Part shown: positions 1 through 52,521 of the stretch, in pieces
How the letters are laid out: the number at the start of each line of letters is the position of its first letter
How positions within the stretch are numbered: position 1 is the stretch's first letter
Translations under genes and position numbers: made by a program
Notes under the pieces: generated by a model
Databases searched by the model: none
Told to the model about the DNA's origin: nothing
What the model saw: only the letters and a program-made list of their open reading frames with translations
Assembly: GCF_003334255.1 (NCBI RefSeq)
Contig: NZ_QOWU01000003.1
DNA from: Escherichia coli
GTDB taxonomy: Bacteria; Pseudomonadota; Gammaproteobacteria; Enterobacterales; Enterobacteriaceae
DNA length: 64,000 nt
Reading direction: 5' to 3' (one strand)

Positions 1-752
1 TTCTGGGGATTGATTTTTGGCTGGAAGCCTTATTTTTATTCCGCCCGATAATCGTTTGTACCCTAACTGGCGCTATTCTCGGTGATATTCAGACTGGCTT
101 AATTACCGGTGGTCTGACAGAGTTGGCTTTCGCCGGATTAACCCCTGCAGGTGGTGTTCAGCCGCCCAACCCGATTATGGCGGGTCTGATGACCACCGTC
201 ATTGCATGGTCTACGGGCGTTGATGCCAAAACAGCAATTGGTCTTGGCCTGCCGTTTAGTTTGTTAATGCAGTACGTCATTCTGTTCTTCTATTCCGCTT
301 TCTCATTATTTATGACCAAAGCCGATAAATGCGCGAAAGAGGCGGATACGGCAGCGTTTTCCCGGCTTAACTGGACAACGATGCTCATCGTCGCTTCAGC
401 GTATGCGGTGATTGCTTTCCTCTGTACTTACCTGGCACAGGGGGCGATGCAGGCGCTGGTGAAAGCGATGCCCGCCTAGCTGACCCACGGCTTTGAAGTG
501 GCTGGCGGTATTCTGCCTGCCGTTGGTTTTGGCTTGCTGCTGCGCGTAATGTTCAAAGCGCAATATATCCCTTACCTGATCGCCGGTTTCCTGTTTGTTT
601 GCTACATCCAGGTCAGCAACCTGTTGCCGGTTGCCGTACTGGGCGCAGGCTTTGCGGTGTATGAGTTTTTCAATGCGAAATCCCGGCAGCAAGCGCAACC
701 GCAGCCCGTTGCCAGTAAAAATGAAGAAGAGGACTACAGCAATGGGATCTGA
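1..752 (+). pseudogene. agaC: PTS N-acetylgalactosamine/galactosamine IIC component; 5' end outside window; reading frame interrupted by in-frame TAG at 477-479
   Basis: ORFs 123..479 and 498..752 are in the same frame and together read as one mannose-family IIC membrane protein (...QALVKAMPA*LTHGFEVAGGILPAVGFG...); 3' end overlaps agaD start by 11 nt. Confidence 0.8.
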
Positions 753-1533
753 AATCAGTAAAAAAGATATCACCCGTCTGGGCTTTCGTTCGTCGCTGCT
801 GCAAGCGAGCTTTAACTACGAAAGGATGCAGGCGGGCGGTTTTACCTGGGCGATGTTGCCGATCCTGAAAAAGATTTATAAGGACGACAAACCGGGCTTA
901 AGCGCGGCGATGAAAGATAACCTCGAATTTATTAATACCCACCCGAATCTGGTCGGATTCCTGATGGGGTTATTAATTTCGATGGAAGAAAAAGGAGAAA
1001 ACCGCGACACCATTAAAGGCCTCAAAGTGGCACTGTTTGGCCCAATCGCCGGGATTGGCGATGCGATTTTCTGGTTTACTTTGTTGCCGATTATGGCGGG
1101 AATTTGCTCATCATTTGCCAGCCAGGGAAACCTGCTGGGGCCGATTCTATTTTTCGCCGTTTACCTGCTTATCTTTTTCCTGCGCGTCGGCTGGACCCAC
1201 GTCGGTTATTCAGTCGGCGTGAAGGCGATCGATAAAGTGCGAGAGAACTCGCAGATGATTGCCCGTTCGGCAACCATCCTCGGGATCACGGTAATCGGCG
1301 GGCTGATCGCTTCGTATGTGCATATTAACGTGGTGACATCGTTTGCCATCGACAATACCCACAGCGTTGCGCTGCAGCAGGATTTCTTCGATAAAGTCTT
1401 CCCGAACATTTTACCGATGGCCTACACCCTGCTGATGTATTACTTCCTGCGGGTGAAAAAAGCGCATCCGGTGCTGTTAATCGGCGTGACTTTTGTGCTC
1501 TCTATTGTTTGTTCCGCATTCGGCATTTTGTAA
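742..1533 (+). CDS. agaD: PTS N-acetylgalactosamine/galactosamine IID component
   Basis: Internal ATG at 742 gives 263 aa starting MGSEISKKDITRLGF; IID-family membrane protein; longest ORF (595) is an upstream extension. Confidence 0.9.
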   Translation: MGSEISKKDITRLGFRSSLLQASFNYERMQAGGFTWAMLPILKKIYKDDKPGLSAAMKDNLEFINTHPNLVGFLMGLLISMEEKGENRDTIKGLKVALFGPIAGIGDAIFWFTLLPIMAGICSSFASQGNLLGPILFFAVYLLIFFLRVGWTHVGYSVGVKAIDKVRENSQMIARSATILGITVIGGLIASYVHINVVTSFAIDNTHSVALQQDFFDKVFPNILPMAYTLLMYYFLRVKKAHPVLLIGVTFVLSIVCSAFGIL

Positions 1534-2289
1534 ATGGAACGAGGCACTGCGTCTGGTGGTGCCTCTTTACTTAAGGAATTTCATCCTGTGCAAACCCTTC
1601 AGCAAGTTGAAAACTATACGGCGTTAAGTGAACGTGCCAGCGAATATTTATTGGCCGTGATCCGTAGCAAACCGAATGCCGTGATTTGCCTGGCGACCGG
1701 AGCCACGCCATTACTGACGTATCATTATCTGGTAGAAAAAATCCACCAGCAGCAGGTTGATGTCAGCCAGCTCACCTTCGTGAAGCTCGACGAATGGGTG
1801 GATCTGCCATTAACGATGCCAGGCACCTGCGAAACTTTCCTGCAACAGCATATCGTGCAGCCGCTGGGGCTACGTGAAGACCAGCTCATCAGCTTTCGCT
1901 CCGAAGAGATAAATGAGACAGAGTGCGAACGGGTAACGAACCTGATTGCGCGCAAAGGCGGTCTGGATTTATGCGTTCTCGGATTGGGGAAAAACGGTCA
2001 TCTTGGGCTGAACGAACCGGGAGAAAGCCTGCAACCGGCCTGCCATATCAGTCAACTTGATGCCAGAACACAGCAACATGAGATGTTAAAAACCGCGGGT
2101 CGCCCCGTGACTCGTGGGATCACCTTAGGCCTGAAGGATATTCTCAATGCCCGCGAAGTTTTGTTACTGGTGACTGGCGAAGGAAAGCAGGATGCGACAG
2201 ATCGTTTTCTCACGGCTAAAGTCTCTACCGCTATCCCGGCTTCATTTTTATGGCTGCACAGTAACTTTATTTGTTTAATTAACACCTAA
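1534..2289 (+). CDS. agaI: Galactosamine-6-phosphate deaminase/isomerase (NagB-like)
   Basis: 251 aa ORF, ATG immediately after agaD stop; NagB/6-phosphogluconolactonase fold. Confidence 0.9.
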   Translation: MERGTASGGASLLKEFHPVQTLQQVENYTALSERASEYLLAVIRSKPNAVICLATGATPLLTYHYLVEKIHQQQVDVSQLTFVKLDEWVDLPLTMPGTCETFLQQHIVQPLGLREDQLISFRSEEINETECERVTNLIARKGGLDLCVLGLGKNGHLGLNEPGESLQPACHISQLDARTQQHEMLKTAGRPVTRGITLGLKDILNAREVLLLVTGEGKQDATDRFLTAKVSTAIPASFLWLHSNFICLINT

Positions 2290-6604: not shown

Positions 6605-7696
6605 ATGAAAAGAGCGCCTCTTATAACAGGTCTTTTGTTGATATCCACATCCTGCACTTATGCCTCCTCAGGAGGGTGTGGAGCCGACAGCACTAGCGGT
6701 GCGACAAATTACAGCAGTGTGGTTGATGATGTTACGGTGAACCAGACAGATAACGTGACAGGACGGGAGTTTACCTCTGCAACGCTAAGTAGCACTAACT
6801 GGCAATACGCCTGTTCCTGCTCTGCGGGTAAGGCAGTTAAACTTGTCTATATGGTCAGCCCCGTACTTACCACCACTGGACATCAGACAGGATATTACAA
6901 ACTCAATGACAGCCTGGATATTAAAACCACATTACAGGCAAACGACATTCCAGGACTCACAACCGACCAGGTTGTCTCTGTTAACACCCGATTCACACAG
7001 ATAAAAAACAACACGGTATATTCTGCTGCAACCCAAACGGGTGTTTGCCAGGGTGATACGTCTCGTTATGGACCCGTTAATATTGGTGCGAACACCACCT
7101 TTACCCTGTATGTCACCAAGCCATTTCTCGGCTCGATGACCATTCCGAAAACGGATATTGCCGTCATTAAAGGCGCGTGGGTCGATGGAATGGGAAGCCC
7201 GTCTACAGGTGACTTCCATGATTTAGTCAAGTTATCGATTCAGGGAAATCTCACCGCCCCACAGTCGTGCAAAATTAATCAGGGCGATGTTATTAAGGTT
7301 AATTTTGGATTCATCAATGGTCAGAAGTTTACCACCCGCAATGCCATGCCAGACGGTTTTACTCCAGTAGACTTTGATATCACTTATGACTGTGGTGATA
7401 CTTCAAAGATTAAAAACTCGTTGCAAATGCGCATCGACGGTACAACTGGGGTAGTAGACCAGTACAACCTGGTCGCCAGGCGAAGAAGTTCAGACAATGT
7501 GCCCGATGTCGGTATTCGTATTGAAAATCTCGGCGGCGGAGTTGCAAATATTCCTTTTCAGAACGGTATCCTTCCCGTTGATCCTTCCGGGCATGGCACC
7601 GTCAATATGCGCGCCTGGCCAGTTAATCTGGTCGGTGGTGAGCTGGAAACAGGAAAATTTCAGGGCACAGCCACCATTACCGTCATCGTGCGGTAA
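6605..7696 (+). CDS. yraK: Fimbrial adhesin-like (tip) protein
   Basis: 363 aa from ATG 6605 ([22 protein letters not shown]...); signal peptide; last gene of the chaperone-usher operon. Confidence 0.85.
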
Positions 7697-8600
7697 AAGA
7701 AGACGTTGCGTTTTGATTAACGCAACGCTTCGGCACTGTTACCCCTGCTGCTCCAGCGCATAACTTATACAGCGCATTTTTCTTCACGCCGTGAATTTCT
7801 GCGGCCAGCGCCGCCGCTTTTTTCAGCGGCAGTTCTGCCTGTAGCAGCGCCAGCGTGCGCAGGGCATCGGCGGGTAAGTCTTCTTCCTGTGCTTTATGAC
7901 CTTCGACAATCAGCACCATTTCGCCTTTGCGACGGTTTTCATCTTCCTTTACCCACGCCAGCAGCTCGCCAACGGGCGCGCCGTGAATGGTTTCCCAGGT
8001 TTTGGTCAGCTCACGCGCCAGAACCACGTAGCGGGATTCGCCTAATACCGCAACGATATCTTCCAGGCTATCTAACAGACGGTGGGTAGATTCATAAAAA
8101 ATCAGCGTGCGCGGCTCCGCTTCAATGGCTTTTAGCGCATCACGGCGGCCTTTTGATTTGGCAGGTAAAAAGCCTTCGTAACAGAAACGGTCAGAGGGTA
8201 AACCCGCTGCGCTTAACGCAGTGATAGCAGCACACGGCCCGGGTAGCGGCACCACGCGGATCCCCGCTTCACGGCAGGTACGCACCAGATGGTAGCCAGG
8301 ATCGTTAATTAGCGGCGTTCCGGCATCGGAAACCAGCGCAATGTTTTGCCCCTCTTGCAGCTTCGCCAGCAGCGTTTCAGCTTTTTGTTGTTCGTTATGG
8401 TCGTGCAGCGCAAACAACCGGGCATTAATCCCAAAATGTTGCAGCAATAAACCGGTGTGACGAGTATCCTCGGCGGCAATCAGATCAACGGCCTGTAATA
8501 CCTCTAACGCACGCTGGGTGATATCCGCCAGATTGCCGATTGGCGTCGGTACAATGTAAAGCTGGCCCTGAGAATTATCCGCCGATTGGTGTTGTTTCAT
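7683..8600 (-). CDS. rsmI: 16S rRNA 2'-O-ribose C1402 methyltransferase; 3' end reads in a shifted frame in this window (305 codons instead of the expected 286)
   Basis: N-terminus [24 protein letters not shown]; tetrapyrrole-methylase-type SAM MTase; the +1 frame between about 7760 and 7783 leads to ...YALEQQG-TAA at 7739-7741, i.e. a 286-aa product. Confidence 0.85.
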
Positions 8601-26433: not shown

Positions 26434-26634
26434 TGTAATATCCTTTCTCTTTCTTAGACAGTACCTTACGGCACTGGTGTTAATACCCGATCTTCTGCGC
26501 ATCCTCGCGACTAATGACAACCCTAACCCAGCTCTATGTGGGTAAAGCCTCTCATTAGCCGCGCGAACCTCTGCAACGGAAGATCATTCATAGCAACAAT
26601 ACATTAGTTTCCAGTGAATTGCTGCCGTCAGCTT

Positions 26635-26660
26635 GAAAAAAGGGGCCACTCAGGCCCCCT
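26635..26660 (-). terminator. rpsO intrinsic terminator (bidirectional hairpin)
   Basis: GGGGCC-ACTCA-GGCCCC flanked by A-run and T-run. Confidence 0.75.
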
Positions 26661-26679
26661 TTTCTGAAACTCGCAAGAA

Positions 26680-27045
<366 letters not shown>

Positions 27046-28485: not shown

Positions 28486-28520
28486 AAAATTAATTTCAGG
28501 TGGAAGGGCTGTTCACGTTG

Positions 28521-28593
28521 ACCTGATAAGACGCGCCAGCGTCACATCAGGCAATCCATGCCGGATGCAGCGTAAACGCCTTATCCCGCATGG
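28521..28593. repeat. REP elements in infB-rbfA intergenic region
   Basis: GACCTGATAAGACGCGCCAGCGTCACATCAGGC and GCCGGATGCAGCGTAAACGCCTTATCCCGCATGG. Confidence 0.75.
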
Positions 28594-33271: not shown

Positions 33272-33330
33272 GCCCACCCCCAAGACATAAAAAAAGGGCC
33301 TAAAGCCCAGTTATTCTGTAGTCAGATAAC

Positions 33331-33356
33331 AAAAAACCCCGATAAATCGGGGCTTT
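33331..33356 (-). terminator. Hairpin terminator/attenuator downstream of metY tRNA
   Basis: Minus strand AGCCCCGAT-TTAT-CGGGGTTTTTT between metY and rimP. Confidence 0.65.
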
Positions 33357-33477
33357 ATATAACTGAACCCTATAACCGCAACTGCGGTCTGGAGCACTTT
33401 CCAGAAGGATTTTTTCAAATCCCACTACGAAGGCCGAAGTCTTCACAGTATATTTGAAAAAGGACTCTAAGGGAAAG

Positions 33478-33554
<77 letters not shown>

Positions 33555-43503: not shown

Positions 43504-43980
<477 letters not shown>

Positions 43981-44227
43981 TTGTTATACCTCTTGAATAT
44001 TCCTGATGGGGCAAGTCTTCACCCACCCCGGCTGTTCGGCCTGCCCGGCATAACTCCTCACCGGGACCAGAAGCAAAAAAATACCGACCCGGGTACAAGT
44101 CCCAGGTCAGCTACAATTCACATTTTGATAGTCATTTTACCCTGAAGTTCCCGAAGGGTCATCGTTTACTTTATAGGGCGTTGCGCCGTAGTATGACGGC
44201 TCGATTCCAGGTTGTTAGCGCGAGATT

Positions 44228-45661
44228 ATGCGATTTTCCAGATTTATCATCGGATTGACCAGCTGTATAGCGTTCAGTGTTCAGGCCGCAAATGTTGATG
44301 AGTACATTACTCAACTCCCCGCTGGTGCCAACCTTGCCCTGATGGTGCAAAAAGTCGGCGCGTCGGCCCCCGCTATTGATTACCACAGTCAGCAGATGGC
44401 GCTGCCTGCCAGTACCCAGAAAGTGATTACTGCGCTGGCGGCGTTGATTCAACTCGGCCCCGATTTTCGTTTTACCACGACGCTTGAAACCAAAGGCAAT
44501 GTGGAAAACGGCGTACTTAAGGGTGACTTAGTGGCGCGATTTGGTGCCGATCCGACGTTAAAACGTCAGGATATTCGCAATATGGTCGCGACTTTGAAAA
44601 AATCTGGCGTCAACCAAATCGATGGCAATGTGTTGATAGATACCTCCATTTTCGCCAGCCACGATAAAGCCCCCGGCTGGCCATGGAATGACATGACACA
44701 ATGCTTTAGCGCTCCGCCTGCCGCCGCCATAGTTGACCGCAACTGTTTCTCCGTCTCGCTCTACAGTGCCCCAAAGCCTGGTGATATGGCTTTTATACGC
44801 GTGGCATCTTATTACCCCGTTACGATGTTCAGCCAGGTACGCACCCTCCCCCGTGGTTCTGCCGAAGCGCAATACTGCGAACTGGATGTGGTGCCAGGCG
44901 ACCTGAACCGCTTTACGCTGACGGGATGCCTGCCACAACGTTCTGAGCCGCTCCCGTTGGCTTTTGCCGTGCAGGATGGAGCCAGCTATGCCGGTGCAAT
45001 TCTGAAAGATGAGTTAAAACAGGCGGGTATCACCTGGAGCGGAACACTGCTGCGCCAGACTCAGGTTAACGAACCTGGAACGGTAGTTGCCAGTAAACAG
45101 TCGGCCCCGCTGCACGATCTGCTTAAGATTATGCTGAAAAAGTCGGACAACATGATCGCCGATACGGTTTTCCGCATGATAGGCCATGCGCGCTTCAATG
45201 TGCCTGGAACATGGCGGGCCGGGTCGGACGCCGTGCGTCAGATCCTGCGCCAGCAAGCCGGTGTCGATATTGGAAACACCATTATTGCCGATGGTTCAGG
45301 GCTTTCGCGGCATAACCTGATTGCCCCCGCCACCATGATGCAGGTGCTGCAATACATTGCCCAACACGACAATGAACTTAACTTTATCTCCATGCTGCCG
45401 CTGGCGGGCTATGACGGCTCTTTGCAGTACCGTGCAGGTCTGCATCAGGCGGGCGTGGATGGAAAAGTCTCAGCGAAAACCGGTTCGTTGCAGGGGGTAT
45501 ATAACCTGGCGGGATTCATTACCACAGCGAGCGGGCAACGAATGGCGTTTGTGCAATATCTTTCTGGCTATGCAGTAGAACCTGCGGATCAGCGTAATCG
45601 CCGTATTCCGTTAGTGCGTTTTGAAAGCCGTTTGTATAAAGATATTTATCAGAACAATTAG
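44228..45661 (+). CDS. dacB: D-alanyl-D-alanine carboxypeptidase/endopeptidase PBP4
   Basis: 477 aa; signal peptide; class-C PBP motifs (STQK, SDN, KTG). Confidence 0.95.
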   Translation: MRFSRFIIGLTSCIAFSVQAANVDEYITQLPAGANLALMVQKVGASAPAIDYHSQQMALPASTQKVITALAALIQLGPDFRFTTTLETKGNVENGVLKGDLVARFGADPTLKRQDIRNMVATLKKSGVNQIDGNVLIDTSIFASHDKAPGWPWNDMTQCFSAPPAAAIVDRNCFSVSLYSAPKPGDMAFIRVASYYPVTMFSQVRTLPRGSAEAQYCELDVVPGDLNRFTLTGCLPQRSEPLPLAFAVQDGASYAGAILKDELKQAGITWSGTLLRQTQVNEPGTVVASKQSAPLHDLLKIMLKKSDNMIADTVFRMIGHARFNVPGTWRAGSDAVRQILRQQAGVDIGNTIIADGSGLSRHNLIAPATMMQVLQYIAQHDNELNFISMLPLAGYDGSLQYRAGLHQAGVDGKVSAKTGSLQGVYNLAGFITTASGQRMAFVQYLSGYAVEPADQRNRRIPLVRFESRLYKDIYQNN

Positions 45662-45669
45662 TCAAAAAG

Positions 45670-45700
45670 AAACCCCGGCACATGGCCGGGGCTTCAGATT
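45670..45700 (+). terminator. Hairpin terminator after dacB
   Basis: AAACCCCGGC-CACATG-GCCGGGGCTTCAG. Confidence 0.6.
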
Positions 45701-45724
45701 ATTGACAAAGTGCGCTTTGTTTAT

Positions 45725-45822
<98 letters not shown>

Positions 45823-45846
45823 TGATTTGGCGTTTATCATCAGTGA

Positions 45847-47034
<1,188 letters not shown>

Positions 47035-48000
47035 TCATTCGCCTGCGCGGGGTTGCGATACCACCGTTGTATGCTTACGTAATCCGCCCCAAATACGATG
47101 ACCAATGGCGGAATACATCGCGCCCGCAACCACGACAAACGCACCGAGATAACCTAAAAGGTTTAACATCGGTCTGGCGAAGAAATCGGGCCAGGCCAGT
47201 GATAAAAGATCTGAAAAAAACAGCGTAAACAGTGGGGTGAGCGTGATGATCGCGCTCACCTGCGCTGCCTGCCAGCGAGCCATCGCTTCCGCCAGGGCGC
47301 CATATCCTACCAATGTATTCAGTCCGCAAAAAATTAAACATGCGAGCTGCCAGTGGCTAAGCTGCGCTATCACTCCAGGCTTTGCCAGAGGGAAGAGCGC
47401 AATTGTACATAAAGTGTACAGTAAAAACAGGATCTGCGGTGAGGCCAGCCGACGCAATAAAACCTTTTGCGCCACGCCATAACTCACCCAAACCGTCGCA
47501 GCACCGACCCCAAAGATAACTCCCCAGGTGTAATCGGTGAGCTTTGTAAATATCTCGACCAGACTGGTGTTAAAAAACATCACCAGGCCGCTCAGGAGCA
47601 TCAATGCCCCTACAACCTGAGTGCTGCGCATTTTCTCTTTCAGGATAAATACGCTGGCAACCATCATGCCAACTGGCGAGAGTTGCCCAATCACCTGCGA
47701 AGCGGTCGGACTCAGGTATTGCAAGGATGAGCTGAACAGGATGAAGTTCCCAAACAGCCCGGCGGTCGCCACTGCCAACAAAATCAACCAGCGTGGCTTA
47801 CGAAACACGCGTAATGGCGGCAACCTCTTCTTCACCGCAAGAATGGCACCCAGGCCAATACTCGCCATCAAGAAACGGTAAAACACGATTGTCGGAGGTT
47901 CCATCACCTCCAGCACCTGCTTCATTGCGATTGGCAACGCCCCCCAGCAAATTGCTGTGGTGAGCGCCAAAAGAATGCCAATGCCTGCCTGCTGCTTCAT
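47035..48000 (-). CDS. yhbE: EamA/DMT family inner membrane transporter
   Basis: 321 aa, 10-TM-like hydrophobic profile. Confidence 0.85.
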   Translation of the reverse strand: MKQQAGIGILLALTTAICWGALPIAMKQVLEVMEPPTIVFYRFLMASIGLGAILAVKKRLPPLRVFRKPRWLILLAVATAGLFGNFILFSSSLQYLSPTASQVIGQLSPVGMMVASVFILKEKMRSTQVVGALMLLSGLVMFFNTSLVEIFTKLTDYTWGVIFGVGAATVWVSYGVAQKVLLRRLASPQILFLLYTLCTIALFPLAKPGVIAQLSHWQLACLIFCGLNTLVGYGALAEAMARWQAAQVSAIITLTPLFTLFFSDLLSLAWPDFFARPMLNLLGYLGAFVVVAGAMYSAIGHRIWGGLRKHTTVVSQPRAGE

Positions 48001-48070
48001 ACCGTATTCCCTGCAAAGCGCATTTGCGGATTAACGTCGCACCATGCGCATTTTTACCGGTTATCGAATG

Positions 48071-48100
48071 TAAAAAGCCCCGCAACGTGTTGCGGGGCTT
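48071..48100 (-). terminator. Intrinsic terminator of rplU-rpmA operon
   Basis: Minus strand AGCCCCGCAAC-ACG-TTGCGGGGCT followed by TTTTTA. Confidence 0.8.
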
Positions 48101-48126
48101 TCATCCGTTACCGGGACGCGAAAAAC

Positions 48127-48752
<626 letters not shown>

Positions 48753-48974
48753 TCAGAGTGCGCTATAAATATTCACAATAGGGCGCGAATATTACGCAAA
48801 ACGCACGCCTTTGACAAGTGCTACAGTCAATACACGAAGAAAAAAAACACAACTTGTACGGTAACGTTTATCTGTGCCATTTTTTCAGTACAATCACCCT
48901 ATATTCCTAACCATAAACCCTAAGTTGCCTTTGTTCACAGTAAGGTAATCGGGGCGAAAAGCCCGGCTTTTGCG

Positions 48975-49946
48975 ATGAATTTAGAAAAAATCAATGAGTT
49001 AACCGCGCAAGATATGGCGGGTGTTAATGCGGCAATCCTTGAGCAGCTTAATTCCGACGTCCAACTGATCAATCAGTTAGGCTATTACATCGTCAGCGGC
49101 GGCGGTAAACGTATTCGTCCGATGATTGCTGTACTGGCTGCACGAGCTGTTGGCTATGAGGGAAATGCGCATGTCACCATTGCTGCCCTGATCGAGTTTA
49201 TCCACACGGCGACTCTGCTGCACGACGACGTTGTGGATGAATCAGATATGCGCAGGGGTAAAGCTACCGCCAACGCCGCATTTGGCAATGCCGCCAGCGT
49301 GCTGGTAGGCGATTTTATTTATACCCGCGCTTTCCAGATGATGACCAGCCTCGGTTCACTCAAAGTGCTGGAAGTCATGTCAGAAGCCGTAAACGTCATC
49401 GCAGAAGGTGAAGTTCTGCAACTGATGAATGTTAACGATCCGGACATCACTGAAGAAAACTACATGCGCGTTATCTATAGCAAAACCGCGCGTCTGTTTG
49501 AGGCTGCCGCGCAGTGTTCCGGAATTCTGGCTGGCTGTACGCCGGAGGAGGAGAAAGGCCTGCAGGATTATGGGCGCTATCTCGGCACTGCTTTCCAGTT
49601 GATCGACGATTTACTCGATTACAATGCCGATGGCGAACAGTTAGGTAAAAACGTCGGCGACGATCTGAACGAAGGTAAACCGACGCTGCCGCTGCTGCAT
49701 GCGATGCATCATGGCACACCAGAACAGGCACAGATGATCCGTACCGCCATCGAACAGGGTAACGGTCGCCATCTTCTGGAACCGGTTCTGGAAGCAATGA
49801 ACGCTTGTGGATCTCTTGAATGGACGCGTCAGCGCGCCGAGGAAGAAGCAGACAAAGCCATCGCAGCGTTACAGGTGCTCCCGGACACCCCTTGGCGAGA
49901 AGCACTCATCGGCCTCGCGCACATCGCTGTTCAACGCGATCGTTAA
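48975..49946 (+). CDS. ispB: Octaprenyl diphosphate synthase
   Basis: 323 aa; trans-prenyltransferase DDxxD motifs (LLHDDVVDESD, DDLLD). Confidence 0.97.
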   Translation: MNLEKINELTAQDMAGVNAAILEQLNSDVQLINQLGYYIVSGGGKRIRPMIAVLAARAVGYEGNAHVTIAALIEFIHTATLLHDDVVDESDMRRGKATANAAFGNAASVLVGDFIYTRAFQMMTSLGSLKVLEVMSEAVNVIAEGEVLQLMNVNDPDITEENYMRVIYSKTARLFEAAAQCSGILAGCTPEEEKGLQDYGRYLGTAFQLIDDLLDYNADGEQLGKNVGDDLNEGKPTLPLLHAMHHGTPEQAQMIRTAIEQGNGRHLLEPVLEAMNACGSLEWTRQRAEEEADKAIAALQVLPDTPWREALIGLAHIAVQRDR

Positions 49947-50174
49947 TCCCCTCCCCTCATCCCGCGCAGTGCGCGGGATGATTCCAGTAAACTCCATAAG
50001 AATACTTATTCAGCGTAATAATGCACTGAAAAACCAGTGTATACATCTTTATATATTCTGAATATTCACACTCTTTACAGGAACTTTTTAGAGCAATCGG
50101 CCATCAGGAGTATAGTGATGCTCGACAGAAGAAGTGTTCTGAATGAAAGCGACTAACTTAAGGAGTGAGGAAAG

Positions 50175-50453
50175 ATGGAAAGTAATTTCATTGACTGGCA
50201 TCCCGCTGACATCATTGCGGGTTTGCGCAAGAAGGGAACGTCAATGGCGGCGGAATCTCGCAGAAATGGTTTGAGTTCCTCAACGCTGGCGAATGCATTA
50301 TCGCGCCCATGGCCGAAAGGAGAGATGATTATTGCGAAGGCCCTGGGAACTGACCCCTGGGTTATCTGGCCATCACGCTACCATGATCCGCAGACCCATG
50401 AGTTTATCGACAGAACGCAGTTGATGCGTAGCTACACTAAACCGAAAAAATGA
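50175..50453 (+). CDS. sfsB: Ner-like DNA-binding transcriptional regulator
   Basis: 92 aa; HTH Ner-family. Confidence 0.9.
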   Translation: MESNFIDWHPADIIAGLRKKGTSMAAESRRNGLSSSTLANALSRPWPKGEMIIAKALGTDPWVIWPSRYHDPQTHEFIDRTQLMRSYTKPKK

Positions 50454-50500
50454 GTGGTCTGGCGGTAGCCCCGCGTACGGGGCTGCCAGCTTTCAGACGA

Positions 50501-51760
<1,260 letters not shown>

Positions 51761-51814
51761 TTAGTTTGTTCTCAGTTAACAATTCATATCCGCTACCGGC
51801 GAATCGCCCATAGC

Positions 51815-52069
51815 TCAAAAGCCGTTCAGTTTGCGATCGCGCGCCCACTCCGCAGGGGTATACGCTTTAATCGACACAGCATGAATGCGGTTATCCGCAA
51901 TATATTCCATCAGCGGGCCATAGACCGTCTGCTGTTTTTTAACCCGACTCATGCCGTCAAACAACTCACCCACGGCAATAACCTGAAAGTGGCTGCCATC
52001 GCCGGAAACGTGGACTTCCTGGAGGGAGAGAGCGTTCATCAACACGCTCTGAATTTCATTATTTTCCAT
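51815..52069 (-). CDS. ibaG: BolA-family acid-stress protein
   Basis: 84 aa from ATG 52069 ([30 protein letters not shown]…). Confidence 0.9.
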
Positions 52070-52188
52070 GGGATCTTCAATCATCAGTTAATAAACCAGC
52101 GAAACATCTTAGAGCAAAGTTGCGCTGGCATAAATAAGCAAAAAGCCTCGCTGATAAATCAGACAAGGCTCGACTTGCAGGCAGGTTT

Positions 52189-52219
52189 GCCGGACAGGCG
52201 GTTAACGCCATATCCGGCC
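52189..52219. repeat. REP-like palindromic element downstream of mlaB
   Basis: GCCGGACAGGCGGTTAACGCCATATCCGGCC followed by an A-run. Confidence 0.6.
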
Positions 52220-52228
52220 TGAAAAAAT

Positions 52229-52521
52229 TTAACGAGGCAGAACATCAGCAGGCAAATTATACAATTTCGCCAGGGTATACACTTTGTCATTTACCCCCTG
52301 AAGCGTCACATTGTTGCCCTGCTTTTTCGCCAGATCGATAAGATGGAGCAGCAGTGCCAGTCCCCCCGTATCCACGCGGGAGACACGGCTAAGATCGATG
52401 CAGGTAATCCCCTTCACCGCTTCCTCACGCATTTCCCAAAGCGGTAGCAAAACGTCCTGATCCAGCTCTCCGGATAACGCCAGCGTGTCACCCGTCTGCA
52501 TCCAGCTCAGTGACTCGCTCA

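Follow-up and report, generated by a model that had tools for sequence, protein, structure and literature searches.

A natural amber allele of agaC in Escherichia coli and its probable origin at a Dcm methylation site

The agaC reading frame and its interruption

When a single stop codon divides a gene in one assembly, it has to be asked whether the organism really carries that stop and, if so, how the mutation arose and what it takes away from the cell. This question is raised by agaC at the beginning of the window, by which we mean the whole stretch of 64,000 nucleotides of Escherichia coli DNA analysed here. An in-frame TAG is present at 477-479, between the open reading frames 123..479 and 498..752, and the translation of 3..752 gave a single mannose-family IIC sequence with one sole break (...QALVKAMPA*LTHGFEVAGG...). 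As judged from G1/2, a nearly identical genome, the gene begins 51 nt ahead of the window and ends with the TGA at 750-752, and the premature stop is therefore codon 177 of 267. The coordinates, the frame, the length of 267 aa and the start about 50 nt before the window had all been given correctly in the initial annotation. The features referred to below are as follows.

1..476, plus strand: 5' part of agaC, codons 18-176, encoding the N-terminal 176-aa fragment of the galactosamine PTS IIC
475..479, no strand: mutated Dcm site, now CCTAG (bottom strand CTAGG), ancestrally CCTGG
477..479, plus strand: premature amber TAG, W177*, with A478 mutated and G ancestral (MG1655 comparison, PGAP)
480..752, plus strand: 3' remnant of agaC, codons 178-267 and the TGA at 750-752, in frame with the 5' part
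608..612, no strand: second Dcm site CCAGG, intact here, its inner C (609) being the first base of the Gln221 codon CAG
729..733, plus strand: Shine-Dalgarno-like GAGGA of agaD, 8 nt before the ATG at 742, as read from the sequence
742..1533, plus strand: agaD (IID subunit), intact, its first 11 nt shared with agaC, same protein sequence as in K-12
1534..2289, plus strand: agaI, intact and coding for 251 aa, with no protein difference from K-12

Profile comparison indicated that the two open reading frames are parts of one gene. The 176-aa half scored 287.3 bits against NCBIfam NF007289 (the AgaC equivalog), covering positions 1-173 of 241, and the 84-aa half, which is the open reading frame 498-752 with a GTG start, scored 88.8 bits, covering positions 181-241 of 241. 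The fragments thus match adjacent parts of the profile, in support of the split-gene reading proposed at the outset. Because each half alone falls below the cut-off of 300 bits, neither alone would get the name AgaC. The best-scoring equivalog was AgaC for both halves, with TIGR00822 scoring higher on the 84-aa half; precomputed PF03609 matches were recorded for both halves, and the 84-aa piece is listed by gene callers as a separate EII-Sor open reading frame. The downstream agaD scored 456.9 bits against NF007359 (cut-off, 400 bits). The gene order agaB-agaC-agaD-agaI was also found to be kept, agaD and agaI being in the window and agaB being directly upstream in G1/2 and in the assembly L010. 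An uninterrupted frame of 267 codons was not found for agaC, with TAG standing at codon 177, and, judged from its sequence, the agaC of the window is a pseudogene without a working reading frame.

Carriers of the allele and their haplotypes

A comparison with the reference indicated G at window position 478 (TGG, Trp) in MG1655 (NC_000913.3 position 3285214) and in a K-12 derivative, and G478A was the only difference from MG1655 across window positions 1-1533. This agrees with the one-base change from TGG to TAG that the initial annotation had suggested and also with the truncation of the IIC subunit claimed there, since the stop at codon 177 of 267 leaves a 176-aa product. Among the 5,255 complete RefSeq E. 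coli genomes in which this region exists, 5 had the TAG allele by the exact 61-mer centred on 478, a count that is a lower bound, as are all carrier counts by exact 61-mers, because 2,125 genomes have another SNP inside the W177 61-mer. Three of these carriers, G1/2, G6/7 and G8, came from the faeces of healthy people in Germany, and the other two complete genomes are Z1323HEC0300 (Korea) and JNEC-KY173 (Japan). G1/2, G6/7 and G8 are presumably components of the probiotic Symbioflor 2. The agaC gene is labelled by PGAP as pseudo with an internal stop in all five complete carrier genomes. GCA_001299315.1 and read-derived Logan assemblies with the same rsmI frameshift as the window (described below) also had A478. 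In a collection of 15 billion proteins, the exact 176-aa product was present on 667 contigs in its Val18 form and on 273 contigs in its Phe18 form; these look-ups are blind to TAG versus TGA at codon 177 and may include contig-end truncations, and the numbers reflect clonal expansion and sampling rather than independent events.

The exact TGG 61-mer was carried by 3,140 genomes against 5 with TAG, the latter on two unrelated haplotypes, and TAG is therefore derived. An ancestrally split gene, which had been named as the finding that would overturn the nonsense reading, is thus not what the comparison indicates, although stops at the same codon do exist elsewhere. The exact W177* allele is already known in the sense that it is flagged in RefSeq annotation, and a literature search found no paper describing W177* or the decay of agaC in general.

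The carriers fall on two haplotypes. The K-12-like one is represented by the window, G1/2, G6/7, G8, L010 and L011, and the B2-type one by Z1323HEC0300, JNEC-KY173 and L015, the last combining B2-type DNA with Val18. The two carrier haplotypes differ at 40-42 sites of the first 1,533 positions, and the haplotype markers at 440 and 521 flank position 478 closely, being 38 nt upstream and 43 nt downstream of it. The B2-type agaC with TGG is common, the gene of E. coli 536 and of many other strains being one mismatch from that of Z1323HEC0300 and JNEC-KY173. The presence of W177* on two haplotypes with such close flanking markers indicates at least two origins; by this comparison of alleles, W177* arose at least twice, possibly more often.

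No complete genome was identical to the window. Aligned over 64 kb with MG1655, the window showed 68 differing columns; over 50 kb, 4 mismatches and a single inserted base pair set it apart from G1/2. A recoded or mutator strain of K-12, which was considered in view of a 25-kb search that ranked K-12 first, was rejected, since the 68 differences represent ordinary natural polymorphism and the window is nearly G1/2 with a recombination-like patch at 43.7-52.3 kb. This patch (43771-52289, greA to mlaB, 8.5 kb) holds 56 of the 68 differences from MG1655, including an indel-rich part at 49970-50043 between ispB and sfsB; its coding changes are almost all synonymous, with ObgE T275A and D375N as the exceptions, and it has the appearance of a tract imported by recombination into surroundings that are otherwise K-12-like. 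Amino-acid differences from K-12 were also observed in YraK (A18T, window 6656), which is common to G1/2, and in YrbG (V303G, window 56448), which lies outside the stretch compared with G1/2. The metY tRNA-fMet gene (33478-33554, minus strand) has C at 33508, where MG1655 has T, that is, G versus A in the tRNA; we take K-12 metY to be the minor initiator tRNA variant with A46 and most other strains to have G46, in which case the window has the common form. Elements expected from K-12 were found by Rfam, namely the SraG sRNA (26492-26663), the S15 leader (26893-27007), naRNA4 (28520-28590), the rimP leader (33289-33389) and the greA leader (44076-44197).

A one-base insertion was observed at 7762 in rsmI (minus strand, ORF 7683-8600), changing GCGCATACTT to GCGCATAACTT 23 nt before the stop codon, and this +1 frameshift alters the last codons and lengthens the product from 286 to 305 aa. 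The insertion was not found in MG1655, G1/2, G6/7 or G8 and was found in GCA_001299315.1 and several read-derived assemblies. As it recurs in independent assemblies and was in every case accompanied by the split agaC, it can be regarded as a real lineage marker. In the B2-type carriers, the yraHIJK fimbrial operon is absent and agaI is followed directly by rsmI; the annotated agaI is 768 nt long in Z1323HEC0300 and JNEC-KY173 and is a 237-aa call in L015, compared with 756 nt in K-12, and Z1323HEC0300 has a copy of IS1397 between dolP and yraQ.

Predicted effects on the permease, the operon and sugar use

AgaC was found to be homologous to ManY (the mannose PTS IIC; PDB 6K1H, 7DYR), which has a different sugar specificity, with residues 3-258 aligned to 6K1H at E = 9e-25. 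Because this homology is nearly full-length, the conserved membrane domain extends over the 91 residues that are missing after codon 176. By inspection, they include three hydrophobic segments and a conserved GG motif, the loss of which makes it very unlikely that the 176-aa product could form a working permease. The residue affected was called a conserved Trp in the initial annotation, and this is correct for the intact E. coli AgaC alleles compared but not family-wide, because Trp177 aligns with Val in ManY. We thus consider it very likely that the 176-aa product without its last third leaves the galactosamine enzyme II (AgaB, AgaC and AgaD with AgaF) dead, with no galactosamine uptake.

A precedent is available in O157:H7 (EDL933 and Sakai), in which the Gam- phenotype is accounted for by an amber codon in agaC, Q8*; EDL933 becomes Gam+ when given the agaBCD genes of E. 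coli C on a plasmid, and agaI is dispensable (Hu, Patel and Mukherjee 2013, PMC3668189). Because the O157:H7 agaC amber is Gam-, strains with W177* should, by analogy, be Gam- as well. The two alleles are alike in being single transitions to TAG in agaC with a predicted loss of the galactosamine IIC, and hence a Gam- state, with use of N-acetylgalactosamine (GalNAc) retained; they differ in codon (8 versus 177), in the codon mutated (CAG versus TGG) and in lineage, and the Gam- phenotype is one shown for Q8*. A Dcm-site origin was considered for Q8* too and rejected, the context of codon 8 in K-12 being TTCAGG; the CAG at codon 72 of agaI was likewise read in its context, which is not CCAGG.

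The genes agaV, agaW, agaE, agaF and agaA were found to be intact in G1/2, G6/7, G8, Z1323HEC0300, JNEC-KY173 and L015. With agaVWEF and agaA intact in these carriers, GalNAc use should survive, and its uptake via AgaVWEF is probably spared in the carriers examined. The situation in K-12 is the reverse at the same locus: its cryptic aga/gam cluster, also a natural loss of amino-sugar PTS function, has lost 2.3 kb between agaW and agaA (pseudogenes b3134 and b3135) and lacks agaE and agaF, with agaW and agaA truncated, but has agaC intact, whereas the W177* carriers keep agaVWEF and agaA and have lost agaC. The window begins inside agaC, and agaWEF of its own strain lies outside it; upstream of the window, the L010 flank reaches into agaS, and these 2.3 kb are identical to both G1/2 and K-12. 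If the strain of the window had the K-12 deletion, the stop would add no further phenotype.

Regarding the downstream genes, 262 nt (480-741) are left untranslated from the TAG to the agaD ATG at 742. This stretch is not C-rich overall (C/G ratio, 0.94), its best 78-nt segment, starting at 552, having 29% C and 19% G. In addition, agaD has a ribosome-binding site of its own, the GAGGA at 729..733. The polar effect on agaD and agaI that the initial annotation proposed is possible; Hu et al. (PMC3668189) have inferred polarity within the aga operon in the case of an agaS deletion. The intactness of agaD and agaI indicates that the agaC lesion is evolutionarily recent on the K-12-like background. 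Elsewhere, agaD is marked by PGAP as frameshifted in 19AR1321 and 19AR0253, which carry another agaC amber, Q221* (see below), and the decay of the aga operon has gone on beyond the loss of agaC in these two strains. Other lesions of the locus were observed in Y5 and AREA_R504, in which the match to the agaC-agaI stretch is in two pieces with an IS1 transposase between them, and in MB57, in which no more than 48 nt of the query remain because of a deletion.

A Dcm-methylated cytosine as the probable source of the mutation

Dcm methylates the inner C of CCWGG on both strands, and dcm, which like vsr lies outside the window, is, to our knowledge, near-universal in E. coli. Coulondre, Miller and colleagues reportedly found, in 1978, amber hotspots at Dcm CCAGG sites in lacI. 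The ancestral CCTGG at 475-479 of the window is such a CCWGG site, in which the base opposite G478 is the inner, methylated C of the bottom strand, and that strand now reads CTAGG. CCWGG is an established hotspot for G:C-to-A:T changes, for which both the chemistry and very-short-patch repair have been described (PMC3527292, PMC2715241, PMC13250602). W177* resembles the CCWGG hotspots of lacI in having an ancestral CCWGG, a mutation at the partner of the methylated inner C, TAG as the result and independent recurrence. The lacI hotspots arise in CAG via the top strand, whereas W177* arises in TGG via the bottom-strand cytosine, and the evidence for W177* is comparative, drawn from natural isolates rather than from measured rates of mutation.

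On this basis, the 5-methylcytosine opposite G478 would deaminate spontaneously to T, and the resulting T:G mismatch could escape Vsr very-short-patch repair, which is only partly efficient, and become fixed as CCTAG. Such deamination of a methylated C would explain the repeated mutation of the same base. In agaC, there are four CCWGG sites with eight methylated positions, and a single mutation yields a stop at only two of these positions, as W177* and as Q221*. The latter is an amber produced by C609T within the CCAGG at 608-612, and it is carried by other strains, among them EC2 and SW071611 on a K-12-like haplotype and 19AR1321 and 19AR0253 on a B2-like one. The occurrence of these two alleles and of five stop alleles outside Dcm positions was compared in 5,426 complete genomes, again by exact matching, as listed below.

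W177* TAG, at a Dcm position: 5 carriers in 5,426 complete genomes, two haplotypes
Q221* TAG, at a Dcm position: 6 carriers in 5,426 complete genomes, two haplotypes
W177 TGA (identical truncated protein), not at a Dcm position: 0 carriers in 5,426
Q48*, not at a Dcm position: 0 carriers in 5,426
W87* TAG, not at a Dcm position: 0 carriers in 5,426
Q108*, not at a Dcm position: 0 carriers in 5,426
Q247*, not at a Dcm position: 0 carriers in 5,426

None of the five non-Dcm stop alleles was thus carried by any of the 5,426 complete genomes, and the presence of both Dcm alleles and of none of the five others gave a one-sided Fisher probability of 1/21 = 0.048, a value that comes from the small comparison of two sites with five. 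Among eleven truncation lengths looked up in the protein collection, W177* was the commonest and Q221* the third, both on the two backgrounds, a ranking that is confounded by clonality; Q164*, which is not at a Dcm position, ranked second on the V18 background with 308 contigs. Public data contained nearly all of the transition-type stop alleles examined, many of them on the two protein backgrounds alike. The presence of so many stop alleles indicates that relaxed selection on agaC by itself yields many of them, and we regard this relaxation as the permissive background of the Dcm hotspot, not as its competitor. Taken together, G478A probably came from spontaneous deamination of 5-methylcytosine at the Dcm site.

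Several other explanations have to be weighed against this one. A sequencing or assembly error, with G as the true base at 478 and agaC intact, was suggested by a private insertion of one base at 7762 (rsmI), which first resembled an assembly error; however, that insertion too recurs in independent assemblies, and five complete genomes, sampled in Germany, Korea and Japan, carry A478, as do draft and read-derived assemblies of independent origin, with the 176-aa product on hundreds of contigs, so that we assign an error practically no probability. The initial annotation had left the choice between a sequencing error and a strain-specific allele; the first of these drops out, and the second stands in the form of an allele that is lineage-specific and yet recurrent. 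It is also extremely improbable, though slightly less so, that the gene still works, by amber suppression, by read-through or as a split permease of 176 aa and 84 aa. The frames of both halves are free of further lesions, agaD and agaI are intact, and suppression and split-protein ideas were proposed by Hu et al. for an amber in agaI of O157:H7; the lack of secondary decay is nevertheless fitted equally well by a recent origin, and the agaC amber of O157:H7 does give a Gam- phenotype. A search of the 64-kb window for a suppressor tRNA with a CUA anticodon found only tRNA-fMet (CAT) and tRNA-Leu (GAG), and no recoding element was found by Rfam within the window. No Shine-Dalgarno-like sequence precedes the GTG at 498, and a restart there would drop residues 177-183.

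With respect to the origin of the allele, a single mutation followed by homologous recombination between lineages would make a hotspot unneeded, and it is in keeping with the fact that E. coli recombines, as the patch at 43.7-52.3 kb in the window suggests, and with the identity of agaC in Z1323HEC0300 and JNEC-KY173 despite flanks that are about 1% different. The markers at 440 and 521, however, remain with the recipient background, and an imported tract would therefore need to be shorter than 81 bp; moreover, the two-haplotype pattern is repeated at the second Dcm site by Q221*, and TGA at codon 177 and the four other stop alleles are absent. We therefore consider a single origin very unlikely. 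Somewhat less unlikely, but still improbable, is that selection for the loss of AgaBCD, or relaxed selection against it, accounts for the allele, in which case any null allele would serve and W177* would be common by clonal chance. It is true that agaC has been lost in many ways, including Q8* in O157:H7, the IS1 insertions in Y5 and AREA_R504, the deletion in MB57 and truncations at almost all transition-stop codons, that agaD has secondary frameshifts in Q221* strains and that the system of K-12 was already cryptic. But TAG and TGA at codon 177 give an identical product, and selection on the protein cannot tell them apart, yet five complete genomes, on two haplotypes, carry TAG and not one carries TGA; furthermore, both stop-capable Dcm positions recur, compared with none of the four other stop sites in complete genomes. 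Relaxed selection is in any case compatible with the hotspot, the former concerning the persistence of null alleles and the latter which alleles arise. As a whole, G478A is very likely a real inherited natural allele that makes agaC a pseudogene, recurrent, probably of Dcm-site origin and predicted to cause the loss of the permease.

A more far-reaching idea is that the two Dcm sites able to give a stop serve as a crude switch by mutation, with loss of the AgaCD permease bringing a recurrent advantage in certain gut or urinary niches. If this were true, a benefit of the loss could lie, for example, in the removal of a IIC/IID receptor for phages or bacteriocins or in the avoidance of galactosamine-6-phosphate toxicity, and CCWGG would raise the supply of null alleles. 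The present data bear on recurrence, not on benefit, and we think this idea highly unlikely to be correct.

W177* is an ordinary nonsense pseudogene of a dispensable sugar transporter at a locus known for natural inactivation. Its carriers are expected to be galactosamine-negative, with the use of N-acetylgalactosamine probably kept, and the practical value of this prediction is small. For annotators, it is a warning neither to repair the stop nor to name two separate IIC genes. More generally, the segregating agaC stops in wild E. coli fall on Dcm-methylated cytosines and provide a natural example of a textbook mechanism, and the case of agaC illustrates how methylation may shape which pseudogenes arise.
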